NCBI GenBank assembly: GCA_023245355.1
Contig: JAHFKN010000003.1
Coordinates: forward strand, 121,368-185,367
Reading direction: 5' to 3'
Origin: Candidatus Gottesmanbacteria bacterium
GTDB lineage: Bacteria > Patescibacteriota > Microgenomatia > UBA10105 > UBA927
Length of the DNA stretch: 64,000 bases
Made by a program: the position numbers and the translations under genes. This document shows, piece after piece, positions 11,886 to 25,509 of the stretch (within the stretch, counting starts at the first letter, position 1; each line of letters starts with the position of its first letter). The notes under the pieces are model-generated. The model had not been told where the DNA came from. It made no database searches and saw nothing but the letters and a program-made list of their open reading frames with translations.

Positions 11886-12290
11886 ATGCTGACGGTGTAT
11901 CATGTAGGTATGAATTCTTATGCTGATGTGCTGCGTTCTTTCGGAGGCAAGCTGCATGTTTCCTCACCTCTTAAGCGCTATGTTACCAGGGTAGTGGCGA
12001 AGTTGCCGGAAGAGATACGGACCCATATTACGTCCGATTGTTGGTTCCTGGGAAGCAGGGAAGATGCATGGGCGTATACGTTTACCGGTGATGAACTGGC
12101 AGGGAAGCACCTCATCATTTTAAGTGATGAACTGAGCCGCCAGTCCGATACCGATATCGAGTGGACGATCATGCATGAGATCGGGCATGTCATATTGGGT
12201 CACCGTAACTCCATTTTAGTTACACAGTCGAGGAAAGAAATCGCCCGTCAGGAGAAGGAAGCAGACGCGTTCGCACGCACATACGTATGA
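11886..12290 (+). CDS. ImmA/IrrE-family (COG2856-like) zinc metallopeptidase domain protein
   Basis: HEIGHVILGH (HExxH) followed by QEKEADAFA, matching the ImmA/IrrE HExxH...E..A..FA motif pair. Confidence 0.5.
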   Translation: MLTVYHVGMNSYADVLRSFGGKLHVSSPLKRYVTRVVAKLPEEIRTHITSDCWFLGSREDAWAYTFTGDELAGKHLIILSDELSRQSDTDIEWTIMHEIGHVILGHRNSILVTQSRKEIARQEKEADAFARTYV

Positions 12291-13003
12291 AACGGATTGC
12301 GGTTATAGAGGAGTTGCAAAAACATAAGAATCCCGACAGAGCGGTGCTCTTGTCGCGCTATTTCAAAACGGGCAAAGGAGAGTATGCACAGGGAGATATA
12401 TTTTTGGGGCTGACGGTTCCGTTGCAGCGGCAGATTGCCAAAACGTATCGCAGTCTGGCTCTCTCCGATATAGAAACGCTTCTTACCAGTGCCATTCATG
12501 AATACCGTTTAACCGCGCTTATTATTCTTACTCTGCAGTTTAGTGCGTCCGCACCGGTACGGCAGAAAGAACTTTACGATTTTTACCTTGCGCATACAGA
12601 CTATATAAATAACTGGGATCTCGTCGATCTGTCTGCCCCCAGAATTATCGGCGGGTTTCTGTTGGAGAGAAAACCGAAGCGGCGGGTCCTTTACCGGCTT
12701 GCGAAGTCGGAAGTTCTTTGGGAACGGAGGATTGCGGTCATGGCGACGTTTCCGTTTTTGCGGGCAGGGGATTTTGCCGATACGTTTGCTATTTCAACGA
12801 TACTTATTCATGATTCTCACGATCTTATCCATAAAGCGGTCGGATGGATGCTCCGGGAAGCGGGCAAGGTAAATCAGTCAGCGGAGGAAGTCTTTTTAGA
12901 AAAATACAGCAGCACCATGCCGCGTACCATGCTCCGGTATGCGATTGAGAAGTTTTCCGACGATAAGCGGGCATACTACCTGTCGCGCCGCAGCGCCTTG
13001 TAG
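12287..13003 (+). CDS. DNA alkylation repair enzyme (AlkC/AlkD HEAT-repeat glycosylase family)
   Basis: Matches recalled AlkD landmarks: NNWDLVD, WERRIAVMA, HKAVGWMLREAGK, LRYAIEK. ATGA overlap with the upstream gene. Confidence 0.65.
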   Translation: MKRIAVIEELQKHKNPDRAVLLSRYFKTGKGEYAQGDIFLGLTVPLQRQIAKTYRSLALSDIETLLTSAIHEYRLTALIILTLQFSASAPVRQKELYDFYLAHTDYINNWDLVDLSAPRIIGGFLLERKPKRRVLYRLAKSEVLWERRIAVMATFPFLRAGDFADTFAISTILIHDSHDLIHKAVGWMLREAGKVNQSAEEVFLEKYSSTMPRTMLRYAIEKFSDDKRAYYLSRRSAL

Positions 13004-13117
13004 GGAGTGTTTTTCCCGCCGGAAGCATTCATTGCCGGAAGCGAAATGTCAGCGGGAGGAACGCAGGATTCAGAAATCATTCTTGTTTCATCCTCTGTAA
13101 TTAGCTATACTTCGTGC

Positions 13118-13687
13118 ATGATTTTGTCTGACCGGGATATCACCAATGCGCTCCGCACAGGGAGAATTACCATAAGTCCCAAGATTGATAGTAAGACGCA
13201 GCTTGGTTCATGTTCCGTTGATTTGCGGTTAGGTAAACAGTTTCGTATTTTTAACCACAGCAAGTTTGCCTATATTGACCCCAATAACCCGAAGTTATCA
13301 ACCGACATGATGGCGGAAGTCAAAATCAAAGACGGCGAGCCGTTTATCCTGCAGCCCGGTGATTTTGTCCTCGCGACAACCATGGAAACCGTAACGCTTC
13401 CCAATGACTTAGTAGGCAGACTCGAGGGCCGTTCCAGTCTCGGGAGATTGGGAATCGTCGTGCATTCGACCGCGTCAATTTTTGACCCCGGATGGCAGGG
13501 AATGGTCGTTATGGAACTGGGAAACATGGGTCGTATGCCGGTAGCCTTATACCCGGGCATGCGGATTTGCAGCATGACGTTTGAAGAATTATCATCTCCT
13601 GCCCAGGTGCCGTATTCCAAAAAAAGGGCGGCAAAATATATCGGGCAAAACACTCCGTTAGCCAGTAAAATTACTCAGGACAAATAA
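13118..13687 (+). CDS. dcd: dCTP deaminase
   Basis: MILSDRDITNALRTGRITISP...SVDLRLG...GWQG...LYPG is typical of Dcd/dUTPase-fold dCTP deaminase. 189 aa from ATG 13118; the ORF-track start at 13007 is over-extended. Confidence 0.75.
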   Translation: MILSDRDITNALRTGRITISPKIDSKTQLGSCSVDLRLGKQFRIFNHSKFAYIDPNNPKLSTDMMAEVKIKDGEPFILQPGDFVLATTMETVTLPNDLVGRLEGRSSLGRLGIVVHSTASIFDPGWQGMVVMELGNMGRMPVALYPGMRICSMTFEELSSPAQVPYSKKRAAKYIGQNTPLASKITQDK

Positions 13688-15216
13688 TGGATTGGCCAAT
13701 TCTGTATAAGCAGGTATTGCATGTCAAAGACCCCGCAAATCCCGTCGGGGTTGCCATCATGTGGACGGAACGTCAGGTGGTCGCCGACATGCTCAAAGAC
13801 GAGAACTACTGCGCTATCGGCAACCTGTATTCGTCTGCCGGAATATCCGCCATGATCCGCAATGTGTATGCCAATCCGCATGTGCGGAAAATCATACTGT
13901 GGGGCGCGGATCTTTCCCGAAGCGGCCAGGCTCTTATGGCACTTATGGCAAACGGAGTCGATGAAAACTTTTTTATCATCGGAGATGAAAAGGGCGGCCA
14001 GATAGAAAAAGAAATCGGCCGCGAAGCGATTGATCTGTTCCGCTCTTCCGTCGAGGTGATTAACCTGCGCGGCAAGTCGCCGGATGAACTCCGGAAAACG
14101 GTGGCAAAATACAGCGGTGAAACGCCGGTGCCGTTTACGGAGTCCAAAAAATTCCCGACCAGCAGGCCCAAGCCGTTTACCTTTCCCTCAGAACAAATCG
14201 GATTCCGTATTCACGGTAACACGGCGGCCCAGACCTGGCTTAAGATTCTTCACAATATTATCCGGTACGGCCGTAATAAAACGACGCGATATACGCAGGA
14301 AAACGAACTGAAGGAGTTGTTGAACGTGATGGCGGTCGTGTACGAAGAAGATCCGGAAAAGCCCTACCTTCCGAAGTTTTTTCCGTTTTCCGAAAAGGAT
14401 CTTGCCTCCTATTACCCGCAGGTGCTCTCTGCCAAACAAATTCCCGGCATAGCGTATACGTACGGGCAGCGGCTCCGTGATCATGACGGCATAGATCAGA
14501 TTCAGAATATTATCGACTTAATCAAAAACCGGCCGTTCAGTAAAAAAATGGTCGCGTTTACGGCAAAAATCAAAGAGGATTGGTCGGTGGTCAATAAAGG
14601 CGACACGCCGTGTCTTACACAAATTCTCTGCAGCATTCAGGACGGAAAACTGTTTATGACGACGCATTTCCGGAGCCAGGATATGGTGCACGGCTGGCCG
14701 CGCAACGTATTCAGTCTGCGCAAACTCCAGAAACTTATCTGTGACGAATCCGGGGTTCCCATGGGTGCATTCGTCATGATTACGCATAGTGCGCACATAT
14801 ACAGTGATGATTATGAGCTGGTAGAAAAAATCCTCAAGGAAAATTATGAAAAAGAATTAGGCTACACCAGCCGCCAGATGTTCGAAGATGATCCGCGTGG
14901 CAATATCACGATTGAGATAGAAGAAATAGGGACGAAACCGGTCGGACGGCCGACGAAGTATGCGGTGAAACCGACAGATAAAGAGTATGAAATCGTGCTG
15001 AAAATGTATGCGCCCAACGGCGGATTGTTGCTCAAAGAATGGCGCGGTAAAACGGCAATGGATATATATATTGATCTTATCAATATCGGCGACTATCTCG
15101 TATTACCGAGCCACGCTATATACATAGGCAGCGAGTTGCAGCGAGCGGAATACTATATCAAGCTCGGTATTGCGGAACTATTCAACCAGGATCCTGCGGC
15201 CAACAAGGCCCTGTAA
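13687..15216 (+). CDS. thyA: Thymidylate synthase (ThyA-type) with N-terminal MtrA-like domain (fusion)
   Basis: The C-terminal half has the ThyA core (DTPCLTQILCSIQDGKLFMTTHFRSQDMVHGWPRNVFSLRKLQ, cf. PCH...FQF...LSCQLYQRS.D..LG.PFNIAS). The N-terminal ~130 aa resemble tetrahydromethanopterin S-methyltransferase subunit A (WPIL...V.DP.NPVGVA...NP.VRKIILWGAD.S.SGQAL). TAATG overlap with dcd. Confidence 0.6.
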   Translation: MDWPILYKQVLHVKDPANPVGVAIMWTERQVVADMLKDENYCAIGNLYSSAGISAMIRNVYANPHVRKIILWGADLSRSGQALMALMANGVDENFFIIGDEKGGQIEKEIGREAIDLFRSSVEVINLRGKSPDELRKTVAKYSGETPVPFTESKKFPTSRPKPFTFPSEQIGFRIHGNTAAQTWLKILHNIIRYGRNKTTRYTQENELKELLNVMAVVYEEDPEKPYLPKFFPFSEKDLASYYPQVLSAKQIPGIAYTYGQRLRDHDGIDQIQNIIDLIKNRPFSKKMVAFTAKIKEDWSVVNKGDTPCLTQILCSIQDGKLFMTTHFRSQDMVHGWPRNVFSLRKLQKLICDESGVPMGAFVMITHSAHIYSDDYELVEKILKENYEKELGYTSRQMFEDDPRGNITIEIEEIGTKPVGRPTKYAVKPTDKEYEIVLKMYAPNGGLLLKEWRGKTAMDIYIDLINIGDYLVLPSHAIYIGSELQRAEYYIKLGIAELFNQDPAANKAL

Positions 15217-17631: not shown

Positions 17632-19440
17632 TCATTTTACGGTGACGCTTTTAGCAAGGTTCCTGGGCATATCCGGATCAAACCCCCGTTCGATCGTAAG
17701 GTAATATGCCAGGAGCTGCGCGACGATCACATTCGGGATAATGGTCGCTTCGCCGACATCCGAAACAGGGATATATTCGTCAAACACCTCGTCCGGTTTA
17801 TGCGATACCCCGATGATGTATCCTCCCCGCGCTTTCATTTCCATGGCATTGGCCAGTGTCGATTGGTAATGCATGTCATTTGCCGCATAAACGATACAGG
17901 GAACGCCTTTGGTCACCAGTGCCAACGGGCCATGTTTCAATTCTCCTGCCGCGACTCCCTCCGCATGGATATAGGAAATTTCCTTTATTTTCAATGCGCT
18001 CTCGAGAGCCGTTGAATAGGAAAGTCCTTTTCCGATCACAAAAATATGTTCGACCGCTTTGAGTTCGTGCGCGATGCGCTTGAGTTGGTCAATCCGTTCA
18101 GGTTTCAAGGCCTCCTTTGCGGCCTTGGCGGCAGATGCGACTAACCGTTGTCCTGTTTTGACATCATTTTTCATGGCATGTGCCATCAGAATGAGCTGTG
18201 CGACCACCGCGGTGAACGCTTTGGTAGATGCAACTCCTTTTTCCGGACCTGCCCCGATCGGGAGTGTCAGGTCTGCCATGCGCCAGAGAGATGACCCCAC
18301 GACATTGACAAGCGACATGACTTTGGTGCCGTTATTTTTTGCGCGTTTGACAACCTCCATAAGGTCCATGGTTTCTCCTGATTGGGAAAGAGCCACGATG
18401 ATACTGCCCGGCGGAAGCAGATCGATATGATGATGCATTTCCGTCGGACTGCTCCAGTTGGTAAGTTTTTGGGCGACAGTGGCAAACAGATATGATGCTG
18501 ATCTGGCTGCATACCCGCTGGTTCCGCTTCCGACGATATATATTCTCGGCGCCGTATTGAGCTCATGAGCCAGTAGCATCGCCTGTTGTGTAGATTCAGC
18601 GGCAATTTCTGACAGCATGCCCGGCTGATCAAAAATTTCCTTAAGCATAAAATACGGAAATGTTCCTTTTTCCGCTTCTTTCGCAGTCCAGGTAAGCTGT
18701 TGTTTGCGCGGGCGGATTCTTCTGCCTGTTTTCGCATCAAATATGTGAATGCCGCCTCTGGAGACGACCGCCATCTCGTTATCTTCCAGATAATGGACTT
18801 GTTTGGTATGCGGCAAAAGGGCTGCCGGATCGCTTGCCAGAAAATTTTCTCCGTTTCCGAAGCCGACTACCAGCGGGGAGCCGTTTCGGGCTGCTACCAT
18901 CTCATCCGCTTGGGTATTAATGAGGATTATGGCGTTTAATCCATCCAGATCATTAAATGCCGCCTGTACCGCTTTTGAAAACGCGGGAGCCGCGTCCCGC
19001 GCGGATACGGTAAACCGCTTGAGATACTCTTCTACCAGATGGGCGATCACCTCACTGTCTGTCTCCGAAACGAAACGGTGCCCCTTTTTTATCAGTCCTG
19101 CCTTGAGGGTTTCGTAATTTTCTACGATACCGTTATGAATCACGGCAATAGTGCCCGTACAATCCAGATGGGGATGGGCGTTTATATCCGTAACTCCGCC
19201 GTGCGTTGCCCAACGCGTGTGACCGAATGCAAGCGTGCCGCTAGGCAACTCTGTAACCGTTGCATTGCCGATTTTTCCTGCTTTCTTTTTTACGACAATG
19301 GTTTGTTTGCCGCTCTGTTGTACGGGAACCACAGCAACACCCCAGCTGTCATAGCCGCGGTATTCGAGCGCCTTAAGTCCGTCGAGAACAATTGTCGGAG
19401 CTGTTTTTTGCTTGCCGATATATCCGAAAATGCCGCACAT
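17632..19440 (-). CDS. glmS: Glutamine--fructose-6-phosphate aminotransferase
   Basis: N-terminal MCGIFGYIG (Ntn amidotransferase Cys2), two SIS domains, 602 aa. Confidence 0.9.
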   Translation of the reverse strand: MCGIFGYIGKQKTAPTIVLDGLKALEYRGYDSWGVAVVPVQQSGKQTIVVKKKAGKIGNATVTELPSGTLAFGHTRWATHGGVTDINAHPHLDCTGTIAVIHNGIVENYETLKAGLIKKGHRFVSETDSEVIAHLVEEYLKRFTVSARDAAPAFSKAVQAAFNDLDGLNAIILINTQADEMVAARNGSPLVVGFGNGENFLASDPAALLPHTKQVHYLEDNEMAVVSRGGIHIFDAKTGRRIRPRKQQLTWTAKEAEKGTFPYFMLKEIFDQPGMLSEIAAESTQQAMLLAHELNTAPRIYIVGSGTSGYAARSASYLFATVAQKLTNWSSPTEMHHHIDLLPPGSIIVALSQSGETMDLMEVVKRAKNNGTKVMSLVNVVGSSLWRMADLTLPIGAGPEKGVASTKAFTAVVAQLILMAHAMKNDVKTGQRLVASAAKAAKEALKPERIDQLKRIAHELKAVEHIFVIGKGLSYSTALESALKIKEISYIHAEGVAAGELKHGPLALVTKGVPCIVYAANDMHYQSTLANAMEMKARGGYIIGVSHKPDEVFDEYIPVSDVGEATIIPNVIVAQLLAYYLTIERGFDPDMPRNLAKSVTVK

Positions 19441-19868: not shown

Positions 19869-20513
19869 ATGAAAGAACAACATGAATACATAGCGGTGAT
19901 GGGGACGATGGGGAGCGGTAAAACGACTGCAGCAAACCTGCTTGCCAAAGAGCTGAATTTCACCCTTATAGAAGAAAATGTAAAGGAAAATGCATTTTTG
20001 CCGAGGTTTTATAAAGACATGAGCAGATGGGCATTTCATTCGCAGGTATTTTTCCTGATGGAAAAAATACGGCAGATGATAGAGGCAAAGACACTCTTGG
20101 GAAAAACCTCAGTCGTACAGGATACGCCCATTACGCAGGACGTCTATTCGTATGCCCAAGCACAGCACAAGTTGGGCAATATGGATGACGCCGAGTGGGC
20201 GCTGTACCAGAAAATTTATCATGAATTTACGCCCCATTTTCCTGCTCCTGACCTTATTGTTTTTTTGGATACGTCCATTCCGGTTATAGAGCAGCGGATT
20301 GCATCCCGCGGACGGGGATTCGAGCAGACAATTCCTACGGATTACCTCACGTTACTGGACAGACTGAACCGCAAATGGCTGGAACAAAACACAAACATTC
20401 CGGTTGTTGTCGTGCATACGGACACCCTTGATATCACAAGAAACAGGGATGCACAGGAACAATTTACCTCGATCGTGCGGCACGCACTGCATAGCAAAGG
20501 TAGTGTACACTAA
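19869..20513 (+). CDS. Deoxynucleoside kinase (dAK/dGK/dCK family)
   Basis: IAVMGTMGSGKTTAANLLAKELNFTLIEE and downstream motifs of the dNK family. Start at ATG 19869 (MKEQHEY); the ORF-track start at 19785 is over-extended. Confidence 0.6.
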   Translation: MKEQHEYIAVMGTMGSGKTTAANLLAKELNFTLIEENVKENAFLPRFYKDMSRWAFHSQVFFLMEKIRQMIEAKTLLGKTSVVQDTPITQDVYSYAQAQHKLGNMDDAEWALYQKIYHEFTPHFPAPDLIVFLDTSIPVIEQRIASRGRGFEQTIPTDYLTLLDRLNRKWLEQNTNIPVVVVHTDTLDITRNRDAQEQFTSIVRHALHSKGSVH

Positions 20514-20519
20514 TTAAAT

Positions 20520-21179
20520 ATGATTCATATTCCCGGCATCGCCGTCTGTATATGGGATTTTGACGGCACATTGTACCGGCCGACTCCGGCACTTACGCAG
20601 GCGATTGTCGAGGCAGATTATGAGTTGATTATGCGTCATACCGGCTGGGATAAAGCAAAGACTATCGAAGAATTTCATAAAATATTTAAGATAAAGACCC
20701 CCAGTAGCACCGAAACAGCGGCGATACTGGCCGGTATTTCCGTGCAGGAAGCAGCGATTGAGTGTGAACTCTATAAAGACCGCCGGCCGTTTTTGTCCCG
20801 TGATCAACGACTTATCGATATGTTTAATGCATTAAATGGCTATACCCATTATTTTTTGGTAAATGGTATCCAGGAAAAAGTGCGTGAGTCACTTGCTGTT
20901 TTAGGAGTACCGCCGGACATATTCCGTGAAATAGTGACTGCAGAGCTAGTGGGGGTTAATAAACCACAGCTAGACGGTTTTCGATATATTCTCAAGAAAA
21001 CCGGATTGCCGCCGGAAGCCCATCTGATGATCGGAGACCGTGAGGCGGTGGATTTGGTGCCGGCCAAGTCGGCAGGTATGCGCACATGTCTGGTAAGTTG
21101 GGGCACGACAAAACCGCAGACAGACAGTGTTGACAGCGTTATCGAAGACATATACACTGTACCGGAATTACTTGTATGA
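20520..21179 (+). CDS. HAD-superfamily hydrolase (possible nucleotidase/phosphatase)
   Basis: Motif I WDFDGTLY, motif IV GDREAVD. 219 aa. Confidence 0.55.
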   Translation: MIHIPGIAVCIWDFDGTLYRPTPALTQAIVEADYELIMRHTGWDKAKTIEEFHKIFKIKTPSSTETAAILAGISVQEAAIECELYKDRRPFLSRDQRLIDMFNALNGYTHYFLVNGIQEKVRESLAVLGVPPDIFREIVTAELVGVNKPQLDGFRYILKKTGLPPEAHLMIGDREAVDLVPAKSAGMRTCLVSWGTTKPQTDSVDSVIEDIYTVPELLV

Positions 21180-21388
21180 GCGCCGCAAAATCATCTACTA
21201 CCAAAAAAGAAACGCGTCCTGTCATTACCGGTACAGATAATCCGCATTATCTTGAGATCCGGGCAATTTTAGAAGCAGGCGGATCACTGCCAAAATCACT
21301 GTACAACGAAGACTGTGTCGGTCCGCGCGGCGCCCGCCCGCCCAGGGTAAACAGAGCGAGCTTTTCCGTATATCAGAAACCGCAATAG
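21176..21388 (+). CDS. Possible small protein (70 aa), translationally coupled
   Basis: ATGA overlap with the HAD gene stop. No recognisable domain. Low confidence that it is real. Confidence 0.25.
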   Translation: MSAAKSSTTKKETRPVITGTDNPHYLEIRAILEAGGSLPKSLYNEDCVGPRGARPPRVNRASFSVYQKPQ

Positions 21389-21465
21389 CTTTAACACCGC
21401 TTCCCGGGAACCCTTTTTCCACGATTTGGCTTTGACATTTCACGGTGAATGTCTACTATAGACAT

Positions 21466-22575
21466 ATGAAGATATACTTTACTGCGGCAACGACCAATAA
21501 CGGCGATTATCTTTCCCAGGAAACGGCAATTATTAACGAACTGAAGCGTTTGGGCCACAGTCTCACATCAGGTGAACAGATACTGGATCACAAGGAGCTC
21601 GCTAAAGATGCTGCCAAATCCGCAGAGGAAATTTTTTACCGTGAAAAACAGGCAATTGAAGAAGCCGACTGTGTCGTGGCTGAAGTGACGAAACCCAGTA
21701 GCGGCGTCGGCGGCGAATTGGTATACGCGCTCACGCACCATAAACCGGTGTTAGCGCTTTTTTATAAGGATGCGCCCAACGAACTGTCTGCCATGATTTC
21801 CGGCAACCCCTCCGACCATTTATTCCTGGAACATTATGATGAAGACAGCATGCCGATACTGCTCAAGCATTTTCTGGAGCAGGTAGATGTGGAAAAAAAT
21901 CGCCGGGGGAAACTTATTGTGATAGACGGCGGCGACGGAAGCGGCAAAACAACGCAGGCAGAACTGCTCATGGAATATTTCAAGAAACATAATGTGGCGG
22001 TAAAAGGATTCGATTTTCCCAGATACTACAGTTCATTCCACGGGAAAATGGCGGGAAGATTCCTGGCAGGCGAGTTCGGCAGCGACGTGTCCCCGTATCT
22101 AGCTTCGCTTGCGTACGCGCTGGACCGCGCATCTGCAAAAGAAGAAATGGATGCGTGGCTCTCTCATGGCGGCGTCATCGTGAGTAACCGGTATGCAACA
22201 AGCAACATGGCACACCAGGGGGCGAGACTCCCGGAGGACATGCGCCCGGAATTTCTGGAATGGATTGACGAACTGGAATACAAGGTCCATAAAATTCCGC
22301 GTGAAGATATCGTGGTGTATCTTCACGTTCCGTGGGAAATCGGGATGGAACTTACCAAAAAGAAAGGCGAGCGCGCGTATTTGGGCAGCGGAAAAGATAT
22401 TCTTGAGGCGGACGAAAAGCACCGCAGGGAATCAGAGATGATGTATCTGTCGCTTGCTAAGCAGCGGAAAAATTGGGTGGCGGTCGAGTGTACGGAAAAC
22501 GGCGTGATTCTTTCCAAAGACGCAATCCATGAGAAAATTCTGGCTGTTCTCCGGGAGAAAAAACTCATTCCATGA
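21466..22575 (+). CDS. tmk: Fusion: nucleoside 2-deoxyribosyltransferase-like domain + thymidylate (dTMP) kinase
   Basis: The N-terminal ~150 aa (MKIYFTAA...ADCVVAEVTKPSSGVGGELVYAL) resemble the NDT/PF05014 fold. The C-terminus has IVIDGGDGSGKTTQAELL (Tmk P-loop, cf. IVIEGIDGAGKTT). ATG at 21466 is preceded by TTGACA-16-TACTAT. Confidence 0.6.
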   Translation: MKIYFTAATTNNGDYLSQETAIINELKRLGHSLTSGEQILDHKELAKDAAKSAEEIFYREKQAIEEADCVVAEVTKPSSGVGGELVYALTHHKPVLALFYKDAPNELSAMISGNPSDHLFLEHYDEDSMPILLKHFLEQVDVEKNRRGKLIVIDGGDGSGKTTQAELLMEYFKKHNVAVKGFDFPRYYSSFHGKMAGRFLAGEFGSDVSPYLASLAYALDRASAKEEMDAWLSHGGVIVSNRYATSNMAHQGARLPEDMRPEFLEWIDELEYKVHKIPREDIVVYLHVPWEIGMELTKKKGERAYLGSGKDILEADEKHRRESEMMYLSLAKQRKNWVAVECTENGVILSKDAIHEKILAVLREKKLIP

Positions 22576-23156
22576 CGACGCTTTACCTGGTCCGGCACGG
22601 GGAATACGAGAACCCCGAATATGTCTTTCCGACAAGCACGAGCGGCTTCCCCTTATCGGAGAAAGGGCGGAACCAGGTTGAGGCGCTGATACCGTATTTT
22701 ACGGACAAAGCCGTCGTTTCCGTCTATTCCAGTCCAGTCCTCCGTGCCCGGCAAACGGCAGACGTTTTAGCAAACGCGCTGAAGCTTAAGGTTGTGCTCG
22801 ATGACCGTCTCATGGAGGTAAAAACCACCCTGGAGGGCGTGTCGATGAAGCTGTTCGACGATACAAAGGGCGAATTGTCCTATTTGCCGCAATATACGGC
22901 AAAAGGCGCGGAAACCATGGAAGCTCTTTCGGACAGGGTCTGGAGTGCTCTGGAGGACTTCCGCGCACGCCATGAAGGGAAAGAAGTCATCGTGGTTAGC
23001 CATGGCGATCCGATCCGGTTTAGCCTCATGAAGTACCTCGGGATGCCCATGGATTTTGCGATGAGCCGTAAGATCCAAACCCCGCTTGCAGGAGGCTACA
23101 GGCTGGTTTTTGGAGAGGGAAGTACGCCTGAAGTATATCCTATAGTTGCTTCTTGA
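22572..23156 (+). CDS. Histidine phosphatase (phosphoglycerate mutase-like) family protein
   Basis: LYLVRHGE RHG motif, conserved R and H later (SHG). ATGA overlap with the upstream gene. Confidence 0.6.
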   Translation: MTTLYLVRHGEYENPEYVFPTSTSGFPLSEKGRNQVEALIPYFTDKAVVSVYSSPVLRARQTADVLANALKLKVVLDDRLMEVKTTLEGVSMKLFDDTKGELSYLPQYTAKGAETMEALSDRVWSALEDFRARHEGKEVIVVSHGDPIRFSLMKYLGMPMDFAMSRKIQTPLAGGYRLVFGEGSTPEVYPIVAS

Positions 23157-23217: not shown

Positions 23218-23358
23218 AGTTTAACATAGGTTTTTTCTCAAGTAACGAAGCCCGTCCGGCGAAGCCGGATTAGCTAGATCCGATAGTAAAAATCGGTGTC
23301 AGGGGTTCACCAAACGAAAAAACAGGTTGCCGGTATTTATAGTTTTTTCTATTTGGTA

Positions 23359-23390
23359 AGACCCTCTGACAAGGGTCTTTTTTGTTTTTT
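23359..23390 (+). terminator. Rho-independent terminator (strong)
   Basis: AGACCCUC-UGAC-AAGGGUCU perfect 8-bp stem followed by UUUUUUGUUUUUU. Confidence 0.6.
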
Positions 23391-23396
23391 ATAACT

Positions 23397-24188
23397 ATGA
23401 ATACCGAACGTCCGACTATTACCGTTGTCACCAAAAACGGCGGATATCAGAAAGACCGCATCTACAAAGCCGCTCTCCCGGAGTGGGATATAGACCGGAA
23501 AGATCCGGAATTCAGCGAATGGAGAATCAAACAGAACGCCCCGCATACCGAGGAACGTCCCGTGTATATCGCAGAGGGAAAAGCACGTGAAGATGCAGCC
23601 TGGGTCAGCGCAGTTTGCGGACTTTCCGAAGCGATGATTGATCAGGCTCAAAAGATTAAATCAGAACGCGGACATATGTATCTGTATACCGATTCCGTGC
23701 AGTTTGTGCACCAGCCTGACGGATCGCTGACTATTCATGAAAAACCGCAGGGTGACCCGGTGGTATGGGCAACCACTGCCCCCGAAGCGATTGACCAGTC
23801 AGGAAAAACCATAGAAATCGTGAGTGCCATTACAGCCGTCCGGTGCGATAAACACGGTGTATCAGAGCCGCAGACGGTACTGGTACGTGCCAAAGCAACG
23901 ATGCGTCCGTTTACGCGAGCGGAGCTTATCGAATACGCCAAAGGAAGCGGCAACAAAACGATTCCCGATACCGGAGGCGGTATATCGCTGGCAAACGGCG
24001 GCCGTCAGTTTTTTGACACCAGTAAGCCCCTTACCATATCCGTCCAGGACGGATTGGATAAGGAACCGCAGGAAATGCTGCGCTATGAAACATGGGCACA
24101 TATTCCTGACGTAGCGCTCCGTCCGTTTATCTGCGGTGCATTTGAGCCTGCGGTTATGCGGTTAGCGGAAAAGACGAAGACGCACTAA
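23397..24188 (+). CDS. Hypothetical protein
   Basis: 263 aa from ATG 23397 (MNTERPT...). The ORF-track TTG start at 23382 lies inside the terminator T-tract. No recognised domain. Confidence 0.45.
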   Translation: MNTERPTITVVTKNGGYQKDRIYKAALPEWDIDRKDPEFSEWRIKQNAPHTEERPVYIAEGKAREDAAWVSAVCGLSEAMIDQAQKIKSERGHMYLYTDSVQFVHQPDGSLTIHEKPQGDPVVWATTAPEAIDQSGKTIEIVSAITAVRCDKHGVSEPQTVLVRAKATMRPFTRAELIEYAKGSGNKTIPDTGGGISLANGGRQFFDTSKPLTISVQDGLDKEPQEMLRYETWAHIPDVALRPFICGAFEPAVMRLAEKTKTH

Positions 24189-24204: not shown

Positions 24205-25509
24205 ATGGACCACGAAATTTCCCGGCTTATCGCGTCTGAAGCCAAGCGTCAGCAGGATGTACTGGAAATGATCCCGTCAGAAAACTACGCGTCTTTGGCC
24301 GTACGCGAAGCATTGGGGTCAGTATTAACCAACAAATATTCCGAGGGGTATCCGCATAAGCGGTATTATCAGGGCAACCGTTTCGTTGATGAAATAGAAG
24401 ATATCGCCATAAACCGCGCCAAAAAATTGTTTATGGTCCCTCATGTGAACGTACAGCCGTATTCGGGATCTCCGGCAAATGCTGCCGTATTTTTTGCGCT
24501 GCTTCAACCCAAAGATGCCATTATGGGCCTGAAGCTTTCGGCAGGAGGACACCTCACCCACGGACATCCGGATATCACGTTTTCGGGTAAATATTTTGCA
24601 TCGAGCCAGTATGATGTGGAAGAAGACGGGATGATTAACCTTGAAAAAGTAGCGGTAATGGCAAGAACGGTGAAGCCGCGTATGATCGTCGTCGGGACGA
24701 CAGCGTATCCCAGGGTTTATGACTGGAGGGCATGGCGGCAGATCGCTGATGACGTAGGTGCGTACCTGCTTGCGGATATTTCACATATTGCAGGGCTCGT
24801 CGTCGGGGGCGTTCATCCGTCTCCGGTGCCGTTTGCTGATGTCGTGATGACGACCACTCACAAGTCCCTCCGGGGGCCGCGGGGCGCTATGCTTATGGTT
24901 ACCGATACCGGGTTAACAAAAGACCCCGGAATGGCCGAAAAAATCGATAAGGCCGTGTTTCCGGGTCTCCAGGGAGGCCCGCATGACAATGTAACTGCCG
25001 CGATAGCAGTGGCGCTTGAAGAGGCAAGTCAGCCCTCGTTTACCACATACGCGCATCAGGTAGTAAAAAACGCATCCGTGCTTGCCGAAACGCTGTTAAA
25101 CAAGGGAATCGCCCTTACGACCGGGGGAACGGATAACCACCTTATGGTAATCGATCTCCGTCCGCAGAAAGTGATCGGCAATATCGTCGCCGAAGCACTG
25201 GAAGTTGCCGGCATTGTCGTAAACAAAAATAGCGTGCCCCACGATTCGAATCCGCCGTTTTATCCTTCCGGCGTGCGCCTGGGGACACCCGCCATTACGA
25301 CCCGGGGAATGAAAGAAGAGGAGATGAAAAAGATCGGGAGCTGGATAGCAACCGTCATTTCTGAAGTAAGTCATTATCGTTTACCGGACACAAAAGAAGG
25401 AAGACTGGGATTTCTTTCCGGCGTAAAGAAAGAATTGCAGGTAAATAACACATTGCTGAATATAAAAGATGAGGTAGGTGTGCTGTGCAAAAATTTTCTG
25501 GTACCATAA
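24205..25509 (+). CDS. glyA: Serine hydroxymethyltransferase
   Basis: Full-length SHMT, 434 aa, with VTTTTHKSLRGPRGA (PLP-Lys region) and the typical N-terminus. Confidence 0.9.
   Translation: MDHEISRLIASEAKRQQDVLEMIPSENYASLAVREALGSVLTNKYSEGYPHKRYYQGNRFVDEIEDIAINRAKKLFMVPHVNVQPYSGSPANAAVFFALLQPKDAIMGLKLSAGGHLTHGHPDITFSGKYFASSQYDVEEDGMINLEKVAVMARTVKPRMIVVGTTAYPRVYDWRAWRQIADDVGAYLLADISHIAGLVVGGVHPSPVPFADVVMTTTHKSLRGPRGAMLMVTDTGLTKDPGMAEKIDKAVFPGLQGGPHDNVTAAIAVALEEASQPSFTTYAHQVVKNASVLAETLLNKGIALTTGGTDNHLMVIDLRPQKVIGNIVAEALEVAGIVVNKNSVPHDSNPPFYPSGVRLGTPAITTRGMKEEEMKKIGSWIATVISEVSHYRLPDTKEGRLGFLSGVKKELQVNNTLLNIKDEVGVLCKNFLVP

Follow-up and report, generated by a model that had tools for sequence, protein, structure and literature searches.

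Human DNPH1 (also Rcl; 2'-deoxynucleoside 5'-phosphate N-hydrolase 1), a 5-hydroxymethyl-dUMP (hmdUMP) N-hydrolase, removes hmdUMP and thereby blocks the phosphorylation cascade that involves the thymidylate kinase DTYMK, which was described as the physiological antagonist of DNPH1 (PMC10603095). The catalytic triad of this enzyme is composed of Y24, D80 and E104, the 5'-phosphate is held by S98 together with S128' of the partner subunit, H56 contacts O2 of the base, which is sandwiched between I29 and I76, and a helical extension (residues 128-133) enters the active site of the partner, where it binds both phosphate and base (PMC10603095, PMC10483697). Tyr24 orients the nucleophile and confers a preference for 2'-deoxy substrates (PMC10483697, PMC10603095). 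Another described relative is phage DmtZ, which is DNPH1-like, hydrolyses dAMP and also moves its deoxyribose 5-phosphate (dR5P) onto 2-aminoadenine; it was described as the first natural dR5P transferase, and in Arthrobacter phage Wayne the DmtZ domain is fused N-terminally to a dUTPase-like enzyme (PMC12884076). Here we describe a bacterial gene in which a DNPH1-like domain precedes a dTMP kinase (Tmk) in one polypeptide of 369 residues. The gene, with its stop codon, occupies positions 21466..22575 on the plus strand of the window, that is, the 64,000-nucleotide stretch of Candidatus Gottesmanbacteria DNA that was analysed (GCA_023245355.1, contig JAHFKN010000003.1, 121,368-185,367 of the forward strand); all positions below are those of the window and, unless stated otherwise, features lie on its plus strand.

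The fusion is encoded by a single open reading frame (ORF) that is open from a GTG at 21445 to 22575, and the start common to its homologues is the ATG at 21466, followed by the pattern M-K/R-I/V-Y/F-F. The borders given in the initial annotation, 21466-22575, proved exact, as the ATG at 21466 (MKIYFTAA...) is the start in all homologues. The motifs quoted there are also all found at their places, namely the P-loop, the LID region and AEVTKPSSGVGGELVYAL, the last of which contains the catalytic-type Glu E84 (21715-21717). The database protein search returned 960 matches, the best 120 of which (60-100% identity) were used as close homologues, and a scan of species genomes, with one genome per species, gave 194 genomes with a relative, from which 80 loci were retained (Gottesman-, Roizman-, Woesebacteria and other Microgenomates). 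The full-length two-domain fusion is present in 120/120 of these best database matches and both halves stand in one frame in 80/80 of the retained loci, which rules out an assembly or frameshift artefact.

The N-terminal domain comprises residues 1-147 (21466..21906) and is predicted to be Rossmann-like with five strands; its last helix (residues 129-146) continues directly into the kinase, with no linker between them. Pfam family PF05014 (Nuc_deoxyrib_tr) matches residues 3-103 with 34.8 bits (gathering threshold 28.8, E 2e-8) when the whole protein is searched and with 35.9 bits when the N-terminal half is searched alone. In the phmmer search of PDB sequences with the N-terminal half, rat and human DNPH1 (Rcl) were matched at E 5e-13 to 3e-11 (rat 5e-13; human about 1e-12) and all matches below E 0.1 were DNPH1/Rcl, while no chain of a classical nucleoside 2-deoxyribosyltransferase (NDT, Lactobacillus-type), of PDT or of MilB was matched at E <= 10. 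The AlphaFold2 (AF2) model of residues 1-148, computed as a monomer, has pLDDT 89.7 and pTM 0.87, and DNPH1/Rcl account for every one of its top 50 Foldseek matches in the PDB (E about 3e-9, TM 0.7-0.8, 28-32% identity). The placement of the N-terminal ~150 residues in the PF05014/NDT superfamily, made at first from the letters alone, was thus borne out for about 147 residues. Their description as NDT-like holds at the level of the superfamily only, as the structure and fold matches and the phosphate-binding serines discussed below place the domain in the DNPH1/Rcl branch and not in the classical NDT subfamily. A LOG- or TIR-like fold, which had been named among the matches that would overturn the assignment, was rejected together with SLOG: there is no LOG or TIR Pfam match for the protein at E <= 1 and no fold other than DNPH1 among the 50 top Foldseek matches. 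In the viral fold library a TIR-named protein of a giant virus was found with the N-domain model at E 5e-6. A phage origin and a role in anti-phage defence were likewise set aside: PHROGs yielded only a marginal match to NDT (E 1e-3), and PADLOC returned only weak P-loop noise.

By sequence and modelled fold, the N-domain is therefore assigned to the branch of 2'-deoxynucleoside 5'-monophosphate (dNMP) N-glycosidases represented by DNPH1/Rcl. Being of this type, it would be expected to act on 5'-phosphorylated nucleotides, which makes base exchange between nucleosides unlikely. By analogy, the chemistry to be expected is the cleavage of a dNMP to the base and dR5P, or, less likely, the transfer of dR5P between bases.

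The alignment of the N-domain with human DNPH1 is ungapped, so that the human numbering equals that of the query plus 20, and E84 corresponds to E104 of the human and E93 of the rat enzyme. The covalent nucleophile has its equivalent in Glu84 (21715..21717), located within G-V-G-G-E at the N-terminus of helix 3 (G-x-G-x-E) and kept in 119/120 close homologues and 78/80 genomes; the catalytic Glu of the NDT superfamily, which the initial annotation had wanted checked, is thus in place. The counterpart of Tyr24 is Tyr4 (21475..21477), at a position occupied by Tyr in 95 and Phe in 25 of the 120 homologues and by Tyr in 72 and Phe in 7 of the 80 genomes. At the position of the general acid/base Asp80 stands Glu60 (21643..21645), found in 114/120 homologues, while the genomes carry Glu in 57 and Gln in 20 cases. 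Both serines that hold the phosphate in DNPH1 are present: Ser78 (21697..21699), equivalent to Ser98 (PMC10603095), is kept in 114/120 homologues and 78/80 genomes, and Ser108, equivalent to Ser128, in 115/120 homologues (with Thr in the other 5) and 79/80 genomes. The latter opens the S-A-M-I motif (residues 108-111, 21787..21798), which is identical to S128-A129-M130-I131 of DNPH1 and in which M110 is conserved too. A serine where nucleoside transferases carry the Asp/Asn that binds the 5'-OH is an accepted mark of nucleotide substrates (PMC12884076), and in the fusion these Asp/Asn positions are taken by Ser78 and Ser108, as in nucleotide hydrolases.

The elements that contact the base are less well kept. 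Of the two isoleucines, I76 is matched by I56 and I29 by T9, and at the short helix that bears His56 in DNPH1 the fusion has the clade-specific motif T-S-G-E-Q-I (21565..21582), with Gly36 in place of the histidine; S35, G36 and Q38 of this motif are nearly invariant in both the 120 homologues and the 80 genomes. Two further motifs, G-N-P-S (residues 113-116) and E-H-Y (122-124), are invariant in the fusion clade and have no DNPH1 counterpart. The substrate is not readable from the sequence, since the base-recognition element differs from that of DNPH1. In pairwise comparisons with the window sequence, the N-domain shows dN values of 0.04-0.15, which match or fall below those of the kinase half. 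Because dS is saturated for nearly all pairs, omega is usable in two or three only, where it is 0.02-0.07. These values, together with the residue counts, show that in the window's clade the active-site residues of the N-domain are under strong purifying selection.

The kinase half, residues 148-369 (21907..22572), is of the Mycobacterium tuberculosis TMPK type. PF02223 (Thymidylate_kin) matches residues 153-344 with 66.6 bits (gathering threshold 27, E 3e-18), and the best solved relative of this half is M. tuberculosis TMPK (1g3u), found at E 9e-20 over 185 residues; the equivalog cut-offs of NCBIfam are missed (NF005923 with 128.9 against 193 bits, TIGR00041 with 63.7 against 83.25 bits). 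The P-loop GGDGSGKTT (21928..21954) contains D157 and K161, equivalent to Asp9 and Lys13 of the mycobacterial (Mt) enzyme, of which the former is present in 73/80 genomes (Asn in 7) and the latter in 80/80. The F-P-R-Y motif (22015..22026), which corresponds to Mt Phe36..Tyr39 at the site of the dTMP phosphate, supplies F184 and Y187, and Mt Phe70, Arg74, Arg95 and Asn100 are matched by Y217, R221, R242 and N247, all of them conserved. In the LID, which is basic and reads KKKGER (22357..22374), K300 and R303 are conserved. The roles of these residues and of the LID in the binding of dTMP are presumably those known from the MtTMPK structures. An unusual motif is N-R-Y (22186..22194) instead of D-R-Y: its Asn241 is found in 80/80 genomes of the fusion clade, and a sister clade, introduced below, has 70 Asp and 49 Asn there among 120 proteins. 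Asn appears to be tolerated at this position, because the sister clade carries both residues. The claim that the N-terminal domain is fused to a complete Tmk was thus upheld, with P-loop, LID and dTMP-site equivalents all present, and by these motifs the kinase half is apparently a competent Tmk. In Roizmanbacteria-type genomes the fusion gene directly follows the gene of an AAA+ ATPase of the Clp type and precedes rpsB, tsf and frr, a housekeeping position that is consistent with the fusion being the Tmk of the cell.

What could a glycosidase-like domain do on a thymidylate kinase? The fusion is probably the housekeeping thymidylate kinase of the cell, provided with a built-in nucleotide 'gatekeeper'. 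More specifically, and with a confidence that stays somewhat short of even, we propose by analogy that it is a dNMP hydrolase that gates the attached dTMP kinase, as human DNPH1 does with respect to DTYMK. This proposal is based on the identities of the domains, the conservation of the active site and of the fusion itself, and the gene context, from which we infer the catalytic activity of the N-domain, the identity of its substrate, the formation of a dimer and the gating role. Imported deoxynucleosides would be phosphorylated by the deoxynucleoside kinase (dNK) encoded next to the fusion, and in this way non-canonical pyrimidine dNMPs would be expected to arise too; candidates are hmdUMP, other 5-substituted dUMPs and dUMP. 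The N-domain would dimerise as DNPH1 does, with Ser78 and, from the partner subunit, Ser108' holding the 5'-phosphate of the bound dNMP. Glu84, held by Tyr4, would then attack C1' to give a 5-phospho-deoxyribosyl-enzyme intermediate, with Glu60 as the acid/base; the base would leave and water would free dR5P. The C-terminal half would convert dTMP and ATP to dTDP, and the hydrolase domain would remove non-canonical dNMPs before Tmk commits them to the deoxynucleoside triphosphate pool. As the products of hydrolysis are not substrates of Tmk, the two halves more likely compete at a branch point than catalyse consecutive steps. For the same reason the initial suggestion that base exchange or nucleoside salvage is coupled directly to dTMP phosphorylation is disfavoured.

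The neighbourhood of the fusion gene combines enzymes of dTMP synthesis, of deoxynucleoside salvage and of a house-cleaning type. In the Gottesmanbacteria clade the conserved gene order is glmS (on the opposite strand), dNK, HAD phosphatase, fusion, histidine phosphatase, a 263-residue protein, serine hydroxymethyltransferase (SHMT) and rpsB. In the window the conserved neighbour glmS lies at 17632-19440 on the minus strand, and upstream of it, at the place expected for this known element, is the glmS ribozyme/riboswitch (RF00234, 19520-19733, minus strand, 58 bits). The dNK gene (19869..20513; PF01712, E 9e-47) is found within 6 kb of the fusion in 20/80 loci, 19 of which belong to a single, all-Gottesman-type cluster of 25 such loci. 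It is followed by the gene of a HAD-IA phosphatase (20520..21179; Pfam and NCBIfam, conserved in 17-18 loci), whose weak NCBIfam matches to YjjG, a noncanonical-pyrimidine nucleotidase, and to pyrimidine 5'-nucleotidases are all below the cut-offs. On the other side of the fusion the histidine phosphatase (branch 1; 22572..23156, conserved in 16-17 loci) begins with an ATG that overlaps the fusion stop codon (ATGA, 22572-22575), and a terminator-like hairpin (23358-23379) is located 3' of it. By this arrangement the fusion and the histidine phosphatase are probably co-translated and have the look of a single unit of transcription and translation.

The 263-residue protein (23397..24188) has no significant Pfam or NCBIfam match (a sub-threshold match to Pfam Maf has E 0.016), and the PDB profile search with it returned nothing. 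Its homologues form 17 lineage-restricted clusters, two of which were named Maf/HAM1 by JGI. Its AF2 model (pLDDT 81) is matched by Foldseek to YhdE, YceF and Maf of Bacillus subtilis at E 2e-8 to 2e-7; it carries some 70 additional residues and has two insertions of low model confidence (residues 75-85 and 185-191), and on this predicted structure it is taken as a divergent Maf-fold protein and a putative house-cleaning nucleoside triphosphate pyrophosphatase. The annotated SHMT (24205..25509) is a supplier of one-carbon (C1) units for thymidylate synthase. The genes of a DNA alkylation repair protein (12287-13003; PF08713, E 5e-60), of dCTP deaminase (13046..13687, by annotation), directly downstream of the former, and of thymidylate synthase (13687..15216), whose start is overlapped by the stop of dCTP deaminase, are found 6-8 kb upstream of the fusion. 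The alkylation repair gene adds a further function of DNA and nucleotide hygiene to this region. Since dCTP deaminase, thymidylate synthase and SHMT are encoded within 8 kb, dTMP can be made from dCTP, and the view that the organism lacks de novo nucleotide synthesis, put forward in the initial annotation, does not find support in this region.

The thymidylate synthase itself deserves a separate mention. It is a methanogen-type protein of 509 residues with an MtrA-like module at the N-terminus and PterinBD-DUF4346 at the C-terminus, whose core is matched by TIGR03283 with 144 bits, below the cut-off of 174.55. In it a bacterium of the candidate phyla radiation (CPR) possesses a ThyA of archaeal style that carries its own pterin-binding modules. 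Such an enzyme may use an unusual C1 carrier. Even a dUMP hydroxymethylase is conceivable, and an activity of this kind would connect it to the DNPH1-like domain of the fusion.

When the N-domain by itself was searched exhaustively against 1.8 billion cluster representatives, 897 clusters were obtained at E <= 1e-3, most of which are stand-alone proteins of about 140 residues. Among the stand-alone relatives listed, most carry the full DNPH1 signature Y...D...S-G-E...S-M-G-N, which points to a large and essentially unstudied prokaryotic DNPH1-like family. The multidomain relatives comprise several clusters with Tmk as the partner, a triple fusion of 576 residues in which the domain is followed by Tmk and thymidine kinase TK1 (P0132), proteins in which a DUF84 NTPase of the ITPase/XTPase family precedes the domain (P0136 and P0149), and fusions to a cytidine/dCMP-deaminase-family domain (P0200), to adenylate kinase (P0207, 602 residues) and to DUF4269 (P0263), as well as a tandem duplication of the domain (P0135). 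Fusion of the DNPH1-like fold to enzymes of the nucleotide pool is thus a recurring theme. The sister clade of DNPH1-like-Tmk fusions, for which P0147 was the query, gave 1187 matches (Woesebacteria/Patescibacteria), and its residues were counted in 120 of them. It keeps the equivalents of Y4 and E60, its G-N motif reads G-H, and it has an invariant P-S-W-G-T-A-[F/L]-L-[M/I]-E, in which a Glu stands two residues downstream of the canonical one in 120/120 proteins. In this clade either the nucleophile was relocated or the function was changed; that it is catalytically dead is uncertain, given this invariant Glu.

Several observations weigh against the gating of Tmk by a dNMP hydrolase. As the hydrolysis products are not substrates of the kinase, the advantage of a physical fusion over co-expression is unexplained. 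The replacement of the base-contacting His56 by Gly36 means that the hmdUMP specificity of DNPH1 is not transferable to the fusion, and the general-acid Asp is replaced by Glu60, or even by Gln in 20/80 genomes. Tyr4 gives way to Phe in about 20% of the close homologues, and the Tyr to Phe substitution in rat DNPH1 cut kcat/KM 280-fold (PMC10483697). The nucleophile Glu is missing in several kinase-fused relatives (Phe in P0132 and P0137, Gln in P0124, Val in P0207), and in the sister clade its position is Leu in 119/120 and that of S108 is Pro in 113/120 proteins.

One may ask if hydrolysis is the proper activity to consider. The covalent Glu mechanism of the superfamily permits transfer, which DmtZ, itself DNPH1-like, performs from dAMP to 2-aminoadenine (PMC12884076). 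An N-domain that acted as a dR5P transferase would make dTMP from a dNMP and free thymine, and the fused Tmk would phosphorylate it at once; the two halves, catalysing consecutive steps, would then explain the fusion, including the triple one with Tmk and TK1, better than competition does. We nevertheless regard such a transferase as improbable, since hydrolysis dominates among the DNPH1-type enzymes characterised so far, and in DmtZ transfer amounts to just about 20% and is limited to the Z base, while the neighbourhood already supplies dTMP through dCTP deaminase, ThyA and SHMT and also through dNK. In addition, the 'water-excluding' Pro, a residue described as conserved in transferases, is not found at the place expected from the residue spacing of DmtZ, although this comparison is based on spacing and the alignment is uncertain.

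Since the canonical nucleophile is missing in some kinase fusions, the domain can evidently be retained without it, and one may consider that it serves as a non-catalytic module for nucleotide binding or dimerisation, being an allosteric sensor or a scaffold of the kinase. The relatives P0132, P0137, P0124 and P0207 and the Leu and Pro residues of the sister clade agree with such a role, and a rigid structural unit is suggested by the direct, linker-free junction. In the window's clade, however, 72-79/80 species retain the nucleophile, the Tyr, the acid/base position and the two phosphate serines, and dN of the N-domain is as low as that of the kinase. The sister clade, too, may have kept an activity, given its invariant Glu two residues downstream. 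A purely structural or sensory N-domain therefore seems to us quite unlikely for the protein described here, although such a role stays a candidate for the fusion family taken together.

It is similarly doubtful that the domain serves general dNMP catabolism or pool balancing, in which ordinary dNMPs would be degraded to bases and dR5P, either as a source of carbon and energy or to limit dNMP levels, and the fusion to Tmk would provide co-regulation only. CPR bacteria live on scavenged nucleic acids, which would fit such a role, and the two phosphatases that flank the fusion gene suggest substrate cycling. Rat Rcl/DNPH1 and human DNPH1 do accept canonical dNMPs, if slowly (PMC10483697). Yet no deoxyribose-phosphate aldolase or other gene for the use of dR5P was seen beside the fusion in either clade, and co-regulation alone hardly explains why the fusion is found in all 80 retained loci of the 194 genomes.

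In NDTs the active site is completed by the C-terminal carboxylate of the neighbouring subunit. A classical NDT, exchanging bases between deoxynucleosides, has the Pfam family name and the catalytic Glu in its favour and is nonetheless very improbable and was rejected, as no NDT chain was matched at E <= 10, the 5'-OH-binding Asp/Asn positions are Ser (PMC12884076) and the C-terminus of the N-domain is not free but continues into Tmk.

Some additional features of the locus were noted. A promoter-like sequence, TTGACA-16-TACTAT (21432..21459), ends 6 nucleotides before the ATG of the fusion, and no Shine-Dalgarno-like sequence was noticed between the two, which suggests a leaderless or near-leaderless transcript; the site is a consensus match only, and sites of this type are no more numerous in the region than expected from shuffled sequence. 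A 70-residue ORF (21176-21388) that lies between the HAD gene and the fusion is called as a gene in public assemblies. It has no Pfam match and is detectable in only 2/80 loci. It may not be a genuine gene, and 21180-21465 would then be an intergenic or promoter region. Among the retained loci, many third-party-annotation (TPA) records of metagenome-assembled genomes (MAGs) that are titled 'uncultured Gammaproteobacteria bacterium' (loci L004, L005, L008, L014-L016 and others) carry the fusion gene in the Gottesmanbacteria neighbourhood and are evidently mislabelled Microgenomates MAGs.

Both domains of the fusion are of known kinds, while their conserved fusion and the logic that it implies are undescribed in the literature searched, where no paper on a DNPH1/NDT-Tmk fusion was found. 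In public records the fusion proteins are named 'dTMP kinase', 'nucleoside 2-deoxyribosyltransferase' or 'hypothetical', an annotation problem that the DNPH1-like assignment corrects. DNPH1 is intensely studied as a drug target, since in human cells hmdUMP is contested between this enzyme and thymidylate kinase; the prokaryotic relatives of DNPH1 are almost uncharacterised. The joining of the two antagonists throughout a bacterial lineage may be seen as natural evidence that both activities belong together, and the fusion offers a compact and easily expressed system in which to study the use of one substrate pool by a nucleotide sanitiser and a kinase. For the biology of CPR bacteria, the fusion suggests that salvage-dependent organisms have been selected for checking the quality of the deoxynucleotides that they scavenge. 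A bolder claim, that all through the Microgenomates Tmk carries a catalytically active DNPH1-type glycosidase which proofreads salvaged pyrimidine dNMPs, removing hmdUMP or other modified dUMPs ahead of phosphorylation, or, more radically, feeds the kinase as a dR5P transferase with dTMP made from thymine and any dNMP, is in our opinion rather unlikely, if by no means negligible. If true, it would provide the first instance from cells of a kinase joined physically to a nucleotide N-glycosidase, and the DNPH1-DTYMK antagonism of human cancer biology would be ancient. The fusion does not introduce a new principle and is of note for specialists in nucleotide metabolism or in DNPH1.

How does the fusion compare with the systems already described? 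Classical NDT and PDT (Lactobacillus etc.) share with its N-domain PF05014 and the covalent Glu chemistry; they differ in their nucleoside substrates and in the Asp/Asn that binds the 5'-OH, which is Ser in the fusion, and show no pairwise sequence match with it. The Streptomyces CMP and hydroxymethyl-CMP N-glycosidases, MilB and BlsM, belong to the same superfamily, hydrolyse nucleotides and have an equivalent of Ser98 (PMC10603095). They are, however, specific for ribonucleotides, with Phe at the Tyr position and Arg for the phosphate, and lack the serine-bearing helical extension, which in the fusion N-domain is of the DNPH1 type. Neither of them was matched when the PDB sequences were searched. 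On the kinase side, the equivalents of the P-loop Asp, F-P-R-Y, Arg74, Arg95 and Asn100 of M. tuberculosis TMPK (1g3u) are all present, whereas N-R-Y, His250 in place of Tyr103 and the additional N-terminal domain of 147 residues set the fusion apart.

Closer in architecture is the 'adenylate kinase' of Tupanvirus soda lake (A0A6N1NX88, 602 residues), in which a DNPH1-like N-domain is joined to a nucleoside monophosphate kinase and which was the best viral fold match of the N-domain model (E 3.6e-9). It equals P0207 in length and architecture and represents an independent fusion, with adenylate kinase as the partner and a giant virus as the host of the gene, and its look-alike P0207 has Val at the nucleophile position. 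The phage proteins DmtZ and DmtZ-DutZ (Gordonia phage Ghobes, Arthrobacter phage Wayne) resemble the fusion in that a DNPH1-like domain stands N-terminal to an enzyme of the nucleotide pool. The partner in DmtZ-DutZ is a dUTPase-like dATP/dGTP pyrophosphatase, so that consecutive steps from dATP to dAMP and adenine are catalysed, and DmtZ acts on dAMP in the biosynthesis of the Z-genome and has Asn at the acid/base position; the Ghobes DmtZ entry was matched weakly by the N-domain model, at rank 39 of the viral fold search (E 4e-3). Compared with mammalian DNPH1/Rcl, finally, the N-domain described here is prokaryotic, of CPR origin, and fused to a kinase, with Asp80 replaced by Glu, His56 by Gly within T-S-G-E-Q and the phosphate loop G-S-I-R-G-G reading A-A-T-T-N-N-G, while the fold, the nucleophile Glu, the Tyr, the phosphate serines and the S-A-M-I extension are those of DNPH1.

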